64,000 nucleotides of DNA, taken from sequence record MZ065353.1; one strand, 5' to 3'. The translations under genes were made by a program, and so were the position numbers. This document shows positions 11,055 through 17,724 of the stretch, piece by piece. A model generated the notes under the pieces. That model was not told where the DNA came from and searched no databases. It was given only the letters and a program-made list of their open reading frames with translations. Every line of letters starts with the position of its first letter. Within the stretch, counting starts at the first letter, position 1. Source of the DNA: Escherichia virus KFS-EC3.

Positions 11055-11452
11055 TGGCAAATATTAATAAGCTTTATTCTGACATTGACCCAGAAATGAA
11101 AATGGATTGGGACAAAGACGTTTCCAGATCTCTTGGATTAAGGTCAATTAAAAATAGCCTTTTAGGAATTATTACAACCAGGAAAGGGTCAAGGCCATTT
11201 GACCCAGAATTTGGATGCGATTTATCTGATCAGCTTTTTGAGAATATGACTCCTCTTACTGCTGATACTGTTGAGCGTAACATTGAAAGCGCAGTAAGAA
11301 ACTACGAGCCACGTATTGATAAATTAGCAGTTAATGTAATACCGGTTTATGATGATTATACTCTGATAGTAGAAATACGCTTTTCGGTCATCGATAATCC
11401 TGATGATATTGAGCAGATAAAACTACAACTGGCTTCCAGTAATAGAGTATAA
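11054..11452 (+). CDS. 25: gp25 baseplate wedge subunit (lysozyme-like fold)
   Basis: 132 aa, N-terminus [15 protein letters not shown] as in T4 gp25. Confidence 0.9.
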   Translation: MANINKLYSDIDPEMKMDWDKDVSRSLGLRSIKNSLLGIITTRKGSRPFDPEFGCDLSDQLFENMTPLTADTVERNIESAVRNYEPRIDKLAVNVIPVYDDYTLIVEIRFSVIDNPDDIEQIKLQLASSNRV

Positions 11453-11478
11453 TGCTTCACGTATAAACGTGGTATAAT
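11451..11478 (+). promoter_or_regulatory. MotA-dependent middle promoter upstream of uvsY
   Basis: MotA-box-like aaTGCTTCA at 11451-11459, 13-nt spacer, TATAAT at 11473-11478. Confidence 0.55.
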
Positions 11479-11518
11479 GAATCTAAGTCCATCCAATAAC
11501 AATTGAATAGAGAACAAT

Positions 11519-11932
11519 ATGAAATTAGAAGATCTTCAAGAAGAATTGAAGAAAGATGTGTTTATAGATTCGACTAAATTACAGTATGAAGCAGCTAATA
11601 ATGTGATGTTATATAGTAAATGGCTCAATAAGCATTCAAGTATTAAAAAGGAAATGCTTAGAATTGACGCACAGAAAAAAGTTGCTCTTAAAGCTAAATT
11701 AGACTACTACTCGGGACGAGGAGATGGTGATGAATTTAGTATGGACCGTTATGAGAAATCAGAAATGAAGACAGTTCTATCAGCTGATAAGGATGTTTTA
11801 AAAGTTGATACTTCATTACAGTATTGGGGAATTTTATTGGATTTCTGTAGCGGAGCTCTTGATGCTATTAAATCACGCGGATTTGCTATTAAGCATATTC
11901 AAGACATGCGAGCATTTGAGGCTGGAAAATAA
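11519..11932 (+). CDS. uvsY: UvsY recombination mediator
   Basis: 137 aa; sequence is recognisably T4 UvsY. Confidence 0.9.
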   Translation: MKLEDLQEELKKDVFIDSTKLQYEAANNVMLYSKWLNKHSSIKKEMLRIDAQKKVALKAKLDYYSGRGDGDEFSMDRYEKSEMKTVLSADKDVLKVDTSLQYWGILLDFCSGALDAIKSRGFAIKHIQDMRAFEAGK

Positions 11933-12153
11933 TGAAAAGCATTGATGATGCTTTTAATTATGAAGAAGAATTTGAAACGGAAATTCAATTCTTAATGAAA
12001 AAGTATAATCTCAAGCGTCAGGATATTCGTATCCTGGCTGACCATCCATGCGGTGAAGATGTACTTTATATTAAAGGAAAATTTGCCGGATATCTTGATG
12101 AATATTTTTATTCTAAAGATATGGGCATTGATATGCATATGAGAGTTATATAA
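11932..12153 (+). CDS. uvsY.-1: uvsY.-1-like small protein
   Basis: 73-aa ORF immediately downstream of uvsY with an overlapping start/stop. Confidence 0.6.
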   Translation: MKSIDDAFNYEEEFETEIQFLMKKYNLKRQDIRILADHPCGEDVLYIKGKFAGYLDEYFYSKDMGIDMHMRVI

Positions 12154-12181
12154 ATAGATATATAATTTAGAGGAGACAATC

Positions 12182-12349
12182 ATGTCAGATAAGATTTGTG
12201 TTGTCTGTAAAACTCCAATCGATTCTGCATTGGTTGTTGAAACAGACAAAGGTCCTGTACATCCTGGGCCTTGTTATAATTACATTAAAGAACTACCAGT
12301 TTCAGAAAGTTCGGAAGAACAATTAAATGAAACACAACTTTTGCTATAG
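12182..12349 (+). CDS. uvsY.-2: uvsY.-2-like small Cys-rich protein (55 aa; not in the ORF track)
   Basis: ATG at 12182, stop TAG at 12347-12349; CxxC...C pattern (CVVCKTP...PGPC). Confidence 0.45.
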   Translation: MSDKICVVCKTPIDSALVVETDKGPVHPGPCYNYIKELPVSESSEEQLNETQLLL

Positions 12350-12404
12350 TGTGACCTTTAGTCTATAGTTTTGGCCCTTCCTTTTTGGTTGGGCCTTTTT
12401 TAAT

Positions 12405-14860: not shown

Positions 14861-15478
14861 TTATGCCTTACTAAATTTGCCTTTAGAATCTCTTTTCATG
14901 AGACGACCTTTAATAAATCCGTCGGGAATAATACCGTCTGGTTGTATTAATTTATTTATTGCGCCATTATTGACCCAAAAAGTTCCTGTTGTAGTCGGTT
15001 TGACTTTACATCCTTTTCTGGACTTTCTATTAGGATGAACCATCCCTTTTACAAATCCTTCTGGAACAAGTTCTCCAGGCTTAATAAAAATATTTTTAGT
15101 TCCATTAGTGTAACAAGTTGTACCTAATACCGTGCCCGGTGAGTTTTCAAATCTCTTAGCGGAAGATTCTTTCATCTTTGCTATAACCTCTGTAGTCATA
15201 ACAATTCCACCAATTCCACCAGGTTTCATATTATAATAATTTTTGCTTTTTATCAGTTCAGGAGTTATAATTTCTTCTTCATACATGTACGCTTCTTCGG
15301 AAGTTTTAAACTCTTTTAGTATTTTTCTAGAGAAATTGTTTTCACCATATTTCTTTATAGCCTGCTGAATTGCCTTACCGGAACCAAGGTAGCCATCATT
15401 CAGGTCGTCAGTAGAGTGCTTTCCTATATACTTTTTACCATTTATTAGATTTGTTGTTTCGTATACAAAGTGGTACAT
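14861..15478 (-). CDS. segD: GIY-YIG homing endonuclease (seg family; segD position)
   Basis: N-terminal GIY-YIG-type motif (YHFVYETTNLINGKKYIGKHS) and C-terminal repeated basic DNA-binding motifs; lies between uvsW and inh as segD does in T4. Confidence 0.65.
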   Translation of the reverse strand: MYHFVYETTNLINGKKYIGKHSTDDLNDGYLGSGKAIQQAIKKYGENNFSRKILKEFKTSEEAYMYEEEIITPELIKSKNYYNMKPGGIGGIVMTTEVIAKMKESSAKRFENSPGTVLGTTCYTNGTKNIFIKPGELVPEGFVKGMVHPNRKSRKGCKVKPTTTGTFWVNNGAINKLIQPDGIIPDGFIKGRLMKRDSKGKFSKA

Positions 15479-15527
15479 ACTATTTTCCGAGTAATAAATA
15501 TATCTATATTTATACTGAGGAAATATT

Positions 15528-16208
15528 ATGATAGATAAAGATTATATTGCAGAGCTGAAGGCTCTTGATGATAATAAAGAAGCTAAAGCTAAATTAGCTG
15601 AATATGCTGAACAGTTTGGTATAAAGGTCAAAAAGAATAAATCTTTTGATAATATCGTTAATGATATTGAAGAAGCCCTCCAGAAGCTCGCTAGTGAACC
15701 TATGCCAGAGACTGATGGGTTATCTATTAAAGACTTAATTGATGCTGCTGATGCTGCAGACGGATTAAAATATGACGATGAAGAAGTCAATCCAGAGGCA
15801 GCACTTCTGATTGATTCTCCGGTTAAATCTGACATTAAAATTGAAGTAGTAGAAACGGATAAAATTCCTGAAAATACCGATGTTTTGATTGAAGATACTC
15901 CTTTTGTTGAAGAAAAATTCGAGCAGGCTGTAGCTGAGATTATTGAATCTGAAAAGCCGTCTGTATTTACTCTTCCGGAAAACTTTAGTCCGAATCTTCA
16001 GCTGATTGGAAAAAATCCAGGATTCTGCACCGTTCCTTGGTGGATTTACCAGTGGATTGCTGAAACTCCGGATTGGAAATCTCACCCAACTAGTTTTGAA
16101 CACGCGTCAGCACACCAAACTTTATTTAGCTTAATTTACTACATTAATCGTGACGGATCAGTTCTAATTCGTGAAACACGTAATTCTTCTTTCGTAACAT
16201 TAAAATAA
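15528..16208 (+). CDS. inh: Inh-like acidic protein (putative inhibitor of prohead protease)
   Basis: 226-aa acidic protein between segD and hoc; assigned by position and length only. Confidence 0.5.
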   Translation: MIDKDYIAELKALDDNKEAKAKLAEYAEQFGIKVKKNKSFDNIVNDIEEALQKLASEPMPETDGLSIKDLIDAADAADGLKYDDEEVNPEAALLIDSPVKSDIKIEVVETDKIPENTDVLIEDTPFVEEKFEQAVAEIIESEKPSVFTLPENFSPNLQLIGKNPGFCTVPWWIYQWIAETPDWKSHPTSFEHASAHQTLFSLIYYINRDGSVLIRETRNSSFVTLK

Positions 16209-16217
16209 GGATAACTT

Positions 16218-17636
16218 ATGGCTTTTACAGTTGATATAACTCCTAAAACACCTACTGGAGTTATAGATCAGACTCAGCAGTTTACTGCTACACCCAGTGG
16301 TCAAACTGGAGATGGACCTATTACATATGCTTGGACTGTAGATGATGTTCCACAAGATGGAGCTGAAGCAACTTTTAGTTATGTACTAAAAGGACCTGCC
16401 GGTCAAAAGACTATTAAAGTAGTTGCAACAAACACAGTTCCAGATACTGATGCTGAAACGGCAGAAGCTACTACAACTATCACAGTTCAAAATAAGACAC
16501 AGACAACTACCTTAGCTGTAACTCCTAATAGTCCTCCAGAAGGAGTAATCGGAACAGCTGTTGAATTTACTGCTGCCTTAGCTTCACAGCCATCGGGCGC
16601 ATCTGCTACGTATCAATGGTACGTAGACGGTTCTCCTGTGGGCGAAGCAACTTCTGCTACATTCAATTACACTCCTTCCACAAGCGGAGTTAAAACAATT
16701 AAGTGTGTAGCTCAAGTAACCGCGACAGATTATGATGCAAAGGAAGTTACTTCTAATGAAGTGTCACTGACTGTTAATAAAAAGACGCAGACAACTACCT
16801 TGACAGTAACTCCTGATAGTCCTCCAGCAGGAGTTATTGGAACCCCAGTTCAATTTACTGCTACCTTGGCTTCTCAACCTGATGGAGCGTCTGCCACGTA
16901 TCAGTGGTATGTAGATGATTCACAAGTTGGTGGAGAAACTAACTCTACATTTAACTATACTCCAACTACAAGTGGAGTAAAAAGAATTAAATGCGTAGCT
17001 CAAGTAACAGCGACAGATTACGATACAAAAGAAGTTACTTCTAATGAAGTGTCATTGACAGTTAATAAGAAAACAATGAATCCACAGGTTACATTGACTC
17101 CTCCTTCTATTAATGTTCAGCAAGATGCTTCGGCTACATTTACTGCTAACGTTACGGATGCTCCGGAAGAAGCGCAAATTACTTATTCATGGAAGAAAGA
17201 TTCTTCTCCTGTAGAAGGGTCAACTAATGTATACACTGTTGATACATCATCTATTGGAAGTCAAACTATTGAAGTTACTGCAACTATTACTGCAACTGAT
17301 TACGATAGCAAAACTATTACAGCAGAAGGTCAAGTTCAGGTAACTGATAAAGTTGCTCCAGAACCAGAAGGTGAACTACCTTATGTTCATCCTCTTCCAC
17401 ATCGTACTTCAGCTTACATCTGGTGCGGATGGTGGGTTATGGATGAAATCCAAAAAATGACTGAAGAAGGTAAAGATTGGAAAACTGAAGATCCAGATAG
17501 TAAATACTACCTGCATCGTTACACTCTTCAGAAGATGATGAAAGACTATCCAGAAGTTGATGTTCAAGAATCGCGTAATGGATACATCATTCATAAAACT
17601 GCTTTAGAAACTGGTATTATCTATACCTATCCATAA
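16218..17636 (+). CDS. hoc: Hoc, highly immunogenic outer capsid protein, with one extra Ig-like domain (472 aa)
   Basis: Tandem Ig-like modules followed by a C-terminal capsid-binding region; position between inh and rnlB. Confidence 0.8.
   Translation: MAFTVDITPKTPTGVIDQTQQFTATPSGQTGDGPITYAWTVDDVPQDGAEATFSYVLKGPAGQKTIKVVATNTVPDTDAETAEATTTITVQNKTQTTTLAVTPNSPPEGVIGTAVEFTAALASQPSGASATYQWYVDGSPVGEATSATFNYTPSTSGVKTIKCVAQVTATDYDAKEVTSNEVSLTVNKKTQTTTLTVTPDSPPAGVIGTPVQFTATLASQPDGASATYQWYVDDSQVGGETNSTFNYTPTTSGVKRIKCVAQVTATDYDTKEVTSNEVSLTVNKKTMNPQVTLTPPSINVQQDASATFTANVTDAPEEAQITYSWKKDSSPVEGSTNVYTVDTSSIGSQTIEVTATITATDYDSKTITAEGQVQVTDKVAPEPEGELPYVHPLPHRTSAYIWCGWWVMDEIQKMTEEGKDWKTEDPDSKYYLHRYTLQKMMKDYPEVDVQESRNGYIIHKTALETGIIYTYP
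16491..17063 (+). repeat. in-frame tandem duplication inside hoc (two ~285-bp units, 16491-16775 and 16776-17063)
   Basis: Encoded peptides NKTQTTTLAVTPNSPPEGVIG...EVSLTV and NKKTQTTTLTVTPDSPPAGVIG...EVSLTV are near-identical. Confidence 0.85.
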
Positions 17637-17641
17637 TCATA

Positions 17642-17663
17642 GGGGCTTCGGCCCCTTTCTTCA
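17642..17663 (+). terminator. rho-independent terminator after hoc (GGGGC-TTCG-GCCCC followed by a T-run)
   Basis: GC stem with UUCG loop followed by tttcttcatttt. Confidence 0.7.
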
Positions 17664-17724
17664 TTTTGAAAGCACACAAAACACAATCGGAAAACGATGT
17701 ATATAATGGCACCAACTCGATAAC

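Follow-up and report, generated by a model that had tools for sequence, protein, structure and literature searches.

An extra Ig-like domain in the Hoc capsid decoration protein of a T4-type phage appears to be an old member of a copy-number-variable array

The hoc gene of Escherichia virus KFS-EC3 (MZ065353.1) encodes a head decoration protein of 472 aa that contains two adjacent, similar Ig-like units. An initial annotation, made from the sequence alone, read these as the result of a recent in-frame duplication. This raised the questions of how old the extra unit is, how widely it is shared and by what process the number of units changes. The DNA analysed, here called the window, is a stretch of 64,000 nt, and the positions of its relevant features are collected in Table 1.

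The window protein matched the T4 Hoc chains in the PDB with an E value of 9e-219 (phmmer against PDB sequences; 5vf3_Z and four other entries), and the window gene shared 96.5% nucleotide identity with the annotated hoc of phage SA20RB. The gene order segE-inh-hoc-24.3-24.2-rnlB agreed with the annotated T4, pSe_SNUABM_01 and SA20RB regions, and the gene lies in the position of hoc, downstream of inh and upstream of 24.3, 24.2 and rnlB. T4 Hoc is 376 aa long (PDB chain 5vf3_Z; T4 record), in agreement with the initial annotation. It aligned to the window protein in two collinear pieces, window residues 1-109 to T4 1-109 and window residues 189-472 to T4 93-376 (phmmer). Window Hoc thus consists of T4 Hoc plus exactly one additional 96-aa Ig unit of the domain 2 type. 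The view that the 472-aa protein has one Ig-like domain beyond those of T4 Hoc is upheld; this added domain is domain 2 copied in tandem.

Table 1. Positions of hoc, its domains and its neighbours in the window.
Feature	Position (nt)	Strand	Basis and remarks
SegE equivalent, GIY-YIG homing endonuclease gene	14861-15478	-	Adjoins inh and hoc
inh (inhibitor of prohead protease gp21)	15528-16208	+	ORF; position equivalent to T4 inh; upstream neighbour of hoc
hoc, highly immunogenic outer capsid (head decoration) protein, 472 aa	16218-17636, stop codon included	+	ORF, phmmer, nucleotide identity, gene order
Ig-like domain 1	16218-16481	+	aa 1-88 in repeat register, aa 1-91 in model; aligns to T4 Hoc 1-88; predicted beta-sandwich, pLDDT about 90
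Repeat unit 1, domain-2-type Ig-like, 'type 1', aa 89-184	16482-16769	+	Repeat searches; 97.2% nucleotide identity to SA20RB unit 1, 79% to unit 2
Repeat unit 2, domain-2-type Ig-like, aa 185-280	16770-17057	+	Repeat searches; 92.7% nucleotide identity to SA20RB unit 2
Ig-like domain 3, aa 281-376	17058-17345	+	Aligns to T4 Hoc 185-280; Ig_3 / I-set Pfam matches; beta-sandwich in model
C-terminal capsid-binding domain, aa 377-472	17346-17633	+	Near-identical to T4 Hoc 281-376, with few substitutions
Intrinsic-terminator-like hairpin and T-rich tail	17641-17666	+	AGGGGCTTCGGCCCCT then TTCTTCATTT, just past the hoc stop codon

A terminator is annotated in SA20RB and fPS-90 at the place equivalent to the hairpin that follows the window hoc. 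The T4 late-promoter motif TATAAATA was found on the minus strand at 15507-15514, just upstream of the SegE-equivalent gene; on the plus strand, a search of the window found none directly upstream of inh or hoc. The window as a whole holds 23 occurrences of this motif compared with 9.1 expected, a count reached in 0 of 100 shuffles, and the excess is consistent with a late-gene-rich region of a T4-type phage. The SegE-equivalent gene is also found in T4 and pSe_SNUABM_01 and is missing at that position in SA20RB.

The C-terminal domain of window Hoc is homologous to T4 Hoc residues 281-376, the capsid-binding domain (PMC10385173), and nearly every one of its columns was invariant in an alignment of 31 Hocs. 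Because this domain is near-identical to that of T4, monomers of window Hoc probably occupy the centres of the gp23 hexamers once the capsid is mature. It is preceded by an N-terminal string of Ig-like (PKD/Ig/BIg) domains with predicted beta-sandwich folds. In the repeat region the Pfam PKD family scored 38.5 bits against a cut-off of 23.5, with BiPBP_C and PKD_3 also above their cut-offs, whilst the Ig_2, Ig_3 and I-set matches fell below theirs. The PKD/Ig matches sit in unit 2, the best PKD stretch spanning aa 195-253. An AlphaFold2 model, built from the 31-sequence alignment, predicted four beta-sandwiches at about aa 1-91, 92-187, 188-283 and 284-376 with a pLDDT of about 90 and gave the C-terminal domain low confidence. 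The best Foldseek matches to this model in the PDB were four-Ig ectodomain fragments (Sidekick, Dscam and ICAM-5), and RB49 Hoc (3shs) was among the matches. Unit 2 is the copy nearest to the single domain 2 of T4 (89.9% nucleotide identity), and domain 3 shared 41.9% of its aa with unit 2.

A direct-repeat search recovered the two units as a tandem in-frame direct repeat with a period of 288 nt (16482-16769 and 16770-17057). At the same period TRF reported 2.1 copies over 16482-17075, with 80% matches, no indels and a score of 773. The repeat is in frame and far above chance. It is identical to the one previously placed at 16491-17063, in a register shifted by three codons, and the peptides quoted for it are present. 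The initial annotation was thus right about adjacent in-frame Ig-like units inside hoc; its description of the copies as near-identical, with high DNA identity, did not hold. Units 1 and 2 shared 230 of 288 nt (79.9%) and 78 of 96 aa (81%), their longest perfectly identical run was 24 nt, and third codon positions accounted for 38 of the 58 nucleotide differences. By the Nei-Gojobori method (NG86), dS between the units was 0.82, a value that is noisy over 96 codons, with a dN of 0.108 and a dN/dS of 0.13. The units are two diverged paralogs, both under purifying selection.

We then compared each unit with its counterparts in other phages. Window unit 1 was 97.2% identical in nucleotide sequence to unit 1 of SA20RB and 94.4% to unit 1 of phage 'Some', and window unit 2 was 92.7% and 92.0% identical to their second units. 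Cross comparisons of unit 1 with unit 2 between phages gave 78-79%, and comparisons with the unit's own neighbour 78-80%. In neighbour-joining on 34 units from 18 hoc genes, the nearest neighbour of every unit (34/34) was in another phage and never in its own gene; for the window these neighbours were 97.0% (unit 1) and 92.2% (unit 2) identical over nt 19-288. The first units of 12 phages, the window included, formed one clade with 100% bootstrap. Over the orthologous sequence of domain 3 and the C-terminal domain, 17 other hoc genes of Tequatrovirus differed from that of the window by a dS of 0.11-0.34. The dS of 0.82 between the window copies is 2.4 to 7 times this, so the duplication predates the divergence of the Tequatrovirus phages. 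No recent-looking pair of units was found among the 13 multi-unit genes or 30 two-unit proteins compared, in which the highest identity within a gene was 81% (nucleotides) and 83% (aa), respectively. The copies are not near-identical in DNA when synonymous sites are counted, nor is the pair confined to one lineage in which the paralogs resemble each other more than they do any ortholog.

A stricter scheme, in which units of types 1, 2 and 3 follow each other in 1-2-3 order, was considered and rejected. Only type 1 was robust (100% bootstrap); the separation of types 2 and 3 received bootstrap values of 47% and 6%, and site patterns at the protein level were heavily mosaic.

The architecture of the window gene is common among its relatives. 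A megablast search of the window hoc against 50,697 phage records returned 654 matching records, almost all from Tequatrovirus-type phages of Escherichia, Shigella, Yersinia and Salmonella. In an evenly spaced sample of the matching records, 23/60 (38%) carried the 472-aa form with two units as a one-piece match of 1419/1425 nt, 29/60 (48%) the 376-aa form of T4 length with one unit (about 1131 nt), and 8/60 partial or other forms. A 568-aa form with three units (1707 nt) was present in at least 11 records among the best 40 matches of a query with a 568-aa allele. In a collection of 5.8 billion proteins, the best 120 protein clusters included 79 with 376 aa, 29 with 472 aa and 8 with 568/570 aa. 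Tequatrovirus Hoc thus carries one, two or three units in its domain-2 array, at total lengths of 376, 472 or 568 aa. The top protein match to window Hoc was 96% identical (P0009), and the exact window allele was not in the databases searched. Window hoc belongs to an ordinary and widespread class of 472-aa, two-unit alleles that is already sequenced and annotated. A scan of IMG/VR yielded only 21 loci, mostly from other genera, and was used for comparison with Dhakavirus-type phages, not for population statistics.

Taken together, these results show that the extra domain is an old, diverged copy common to hundreds of sequenced relatives, with no recent duplication. The recent event proposed in the initial annotation is contradicted by the dS of 0.82 between the copies, by orthologs at 92-97% identity elsewhere and by the 472-aa form in 23 of 60 records. 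That annotation had itself named a comparison across relatives as the test of its claim, and the four-domain Hoc with diverged repeats does recur among them. Of the old, fixed architecture that it had set out as the alternative, the age is borne out but the fixation is not, since one, two and three units coexist in very close genomes.

Several records depart from these length classes or carry unexpected labels. AR1 Hoc (301-1725 of its locus) is 474 aa long through a two-residue insertion in the acidic loop that closes domain 1 (…VPESESEPETAE…), and a 570-aa protein (P0002) likewise gains two residues in front of its domain-2 array. Hoc length thus shows a second polymorphism, of small size. 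The gene is split or truncated in several deposits, among them SHFML-11 (KX130861.1, 301-1720) and FriedrichMiescher. These give a match of 1420 or 1418 nt, their annotation lists either two CDSs or 'Hoc part 1 / part 2', and they are either genuine hoc pseudogenes or homopolymer sequencing errors. Hoc is non-essential. A T4-type hoc with 93% identity is held by the record of 'Staphylococcus phage SAJK-IND' (MG010123.1, 32 kb), and phage HP3 (KY608967.1) is filed under Rosemountvirus, yet its hoc is Tequatrovirus-like. Both entries are probably mislabelled or contaminated database records.

The genomes nearest to the window differed in unit number. Over 24 kb, SH-1 (97.9% identical to the window) and pSe_SNUABM_01 (97.7%) have one unit, KMB39 and Pu-Krd-SF6/SF7 (96.9%) two units and ESh36 (96.7%) three. 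The 376-aa hoc genes of SH-1 and pSe_SNUABM_01 lie at 11222-12352 and 1501-2631 of their own loci. Their single unit is made of alternating segments like window unit 1 and like window unit 2. The several switches between them point to gene conversion or to recombination that happened repeatedly, as opposed to a single crossover. Being a mosaic, it does not represent a state before duplication. The single unit of T4 was examined as a possible hybrid of units 1 and 2. Its unit-1-like sites at the 5' end fall within the linker and the first strand and are position-constrained or non-diagnostic across alleles.

Cleaner events were found in the allele family of YOKO23, a 166-kb metagenomic contig with a three-unit hoc. 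Besides this three-unit gene the family includes two-unit derivatives of three kinds, two of them with clean hybrid units, and its flanks are 99.5-100% identical except in fPS-90, where the 5' flank is at 87.5%. The flanks of UoN_LDJ77_1 are 100% and 99.8% identical to those of the three-unit YOKO23 gene; its unit 1 is identical to YOKO23 unit 1 to nt 90-104 and to YOKO23 unit 2 from there on, with exactly 288 nt removed. This gene is the product of a clean single unequal crossover. As the switch falls inside an identical run of 14 nt, short homology suffices. In vB_Eco_BGP unit 1 is kept and unit 2 is a hybrid of YOKO23 unit 2 and a type-3 unit, whereas in Kelasse, ESh31 and fPS-90 both unit 1 and unit 2 are retained and unit 3 is missing. 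Because YOKO23 has unit segments that are missing from the two-unit genes, these events are contractions from three units to two. The family thus shows recurrent recent unequal crossovers. It makes the hoc array a clean natural example of the process, with units about 76-81% identical and switches in identical runs of 14-23 nt.

No such product was found for the window allele itself. Window unit 1 is 84-87% identical to the first units of three-unit genes and window unit 2 is 88-89% identical to their second units, and no clean single-switch partner with one or three units was present among SH-1, pSe_SNUABM_01, ESh36, T4_ev151, YUEEL01 and OMNI12. The process that set the copy number in the window phage is therefore deduced from its relatives. 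Different copy numbers were observed among close alleles and genomes, and single-switch hybrid units between flanks of 99.8-100% identity were observed in relatives. The suggestion of a hotspot for expansion or contraction accordingly stands on an evolutionary scale in the relatives, with one to three units and clean hybrids, but not as an event in the window allele.

The explanation that we consider very probable is that of an old domain-2 array, polymorphic in copy number and remodelled by unequal crossover, of which the window carries the common 472-aa class. Copy number would change by unequal homologous recombination between domain-2 units that are roughly 75-81% identical, ordinary recombination would move hoc alleles among genomes, and the window phage is one carrier of the two-unit allele. 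Homing-associated co-conversion could be part of the decoupling between hoc alleles and genome backbones; the hoc closest to that of the window is in SA20RB.

A recent in-frame tandem duplication of domain 2, in the window phage or its immediate lineage, could account for two adjacent units in frame, of equal length and without indels, and only a single unit is present in SH-1 and pSe_SNUABM_01, its nearest relatives by whole genome. This is very improbable given 58 differences in 288 nt with a dS of 0.82, orthologs of both units at 92-97% in SA20RB, Some and other phages, the same architecture in about 38% of sampled Tequatrovirus hoc records, and the mosaic of unit-1-like and unit-2-like segments that makes up the single unit of those two relatives. 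We give still less credence to an assembly artefact of the repeat as the source of the extra unit or of the variation among records. The frameshifted or split hoc CDSs of SHFML-11 and FriedrichMiescher do indicate that the gene is error-prone in some assemblies, but the units, at about 80% identity and with no identical run beyond 24 nt, offer too little for an assembler to collapse or expand, the window ORF is intact, and hundreds of isolates obtained independently by different laboratories share the same architectures.

The high divergence of the copies could in principle also come from the joining of two deeply diverged alleles and not from age in situ, the copies being old either way. The two-unit gene would then have arisen by unequal recombination of a type-1-like and a type-2-like single-unit allele and would never have held old paralogs side by side. 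T4-type phages recombine at high frequency, hoc alleles have clearly been swapped between genome backbones, and single-unit genes exist that are almost pure type 1 (IMGVR_2938479101) or type 2 (T4, IMGVR_2974787500). We nevertheless regard such an assembly from alleles as unlikely. Unequal pairing requires non-allelic homology, which an existing tandem array supplies far better, and the flanks (domain 1, domain 3 and the C-terminal domain) lack a comparable depth of divergence, with dS of at most 0.34. In addition, those events whose direction can be resolved are contractions from three units to two, and three-unit genes are in an equally diverged state. An old array remodelled by unequal crossover remains our preferred reading.

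Comparison with known Hocs places the window within a wider range of domain numbers. T4 Hoc (PDB 5vf3, 8t1x and others) has three Ig-like domains along with a C-terminal capsid-binding domain. It shares with the window the position between inh and 24.3 and a collinear domain 1, domain 3 and nearly identical C-terminal domain, but lacks the type-1 unit that the window has between domain 1 and its T4-like domain 2. The 472-aa Hocs of vB_EcoM_SA20RB, Pu-Krd-SF5/6/7, vB_Eco_Some, AR1 (474 aa), fPS-90 and ime09 have the architecture and length class of the window and differ from it by allelic sequence alone; the closest of these genes are 94-96.5% identical to the window in nucleotides over their whole length, with units orthologous one-to-one. 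The 568-aa Hocs of YUEEL01, ESh36, T4_ev151, OMNI12 and UGKSEcP1 have the same array with a third unit, which the window lacks.

Hocs of the Dhakavirus/Gaprivervirus type are about 50% identical to window Hoc and have two, three or four Ig domains before the conserved C-terminal domain. IME341 Hoc is 472 aa long, several are of 377 aa (TH41, PSD2001) and those of Bp7, SP18 and MX01 are of 282 aa. Loci of this type in IMG/VR encode Hocs of 282, 373-377 and 471-472 aa. The repeated Ig unit is of the domain 3 type in these phages and of the domain 2 type in the window, and their gain and loss of domains is an independent polymorphism in a sister group. Bacterial surface adhesins also carry tandem arrays of Ig-like/Big beta-sandwich domains; unequal recombination alters the number of these modules, which determines how far the surface fibre reaches. 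Their likeness to Hoc is one of analogy; divergence among Hoc units far exceeds that among typical adhesin repeats and Hoc, unlike the adhesins, is a virion protein. A 'variant Hoc' without domain 3 has been described in phage PNJ-9 (PMC11853027) and, from that description, is probably a comparable two-Ig form.

Variable Ig-domain number in Hoc is already known. According to Fokine et al., the Ig-like domains of 650 Hoc homologs come in strings of 1 to 10 (PMC10385173), and domain number is reported to differ among the Hocs of T4-like phages (PMC13435897). In the searchable literature we found only such general statements on domain number and no explicit account of the 376-, 472- and 568-aa classes or of unequal crossover in Tequatrovirus hoc. 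The 472-aa Hoc of the window, as a common annotated allele class, carries little weight as a discovery.

T4 Hoc is a fibre of 180 Å with four domains (PMC10385173), and the extra domain of the window protein would lengthen the fibre by one Ig module. It may also repeat the domain-2 surface, including an S-L-T motif with a reported mucin contact in another Hoc: in PNJ-9 Hoc, S183-L184-T185 was reported as a contact for MUC2 (PMC11853027). The S-L-T motif has equal numbering (183-185) in unit 1 of the window protein and recurs in unit 2 at 279-281.

The 376-aa Hoc of T4 is not the sole common form in the genus, making up about half of the sampled records, with the four-Ig form at about 38%. Extrapolation from T4 on Hoc mucus adhesion, immunogenicity and Hoc-display should therefore heed the three-, four- and five-Ig length classes. 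More tentatively, the domain-2 array may be an ancient cassette of two to three units, with the three-Ig Hoc of T4 a secondary contraction and with copy number continually reset by unequal crossover under selection on reach or on glycan/mucus avidity. We hold this broader proposal to be possible but rather less probable than its opposite. If it is true, Hoc length would serve, inside a single phage genus, as an adhesion trait that can be tuned rapidly.
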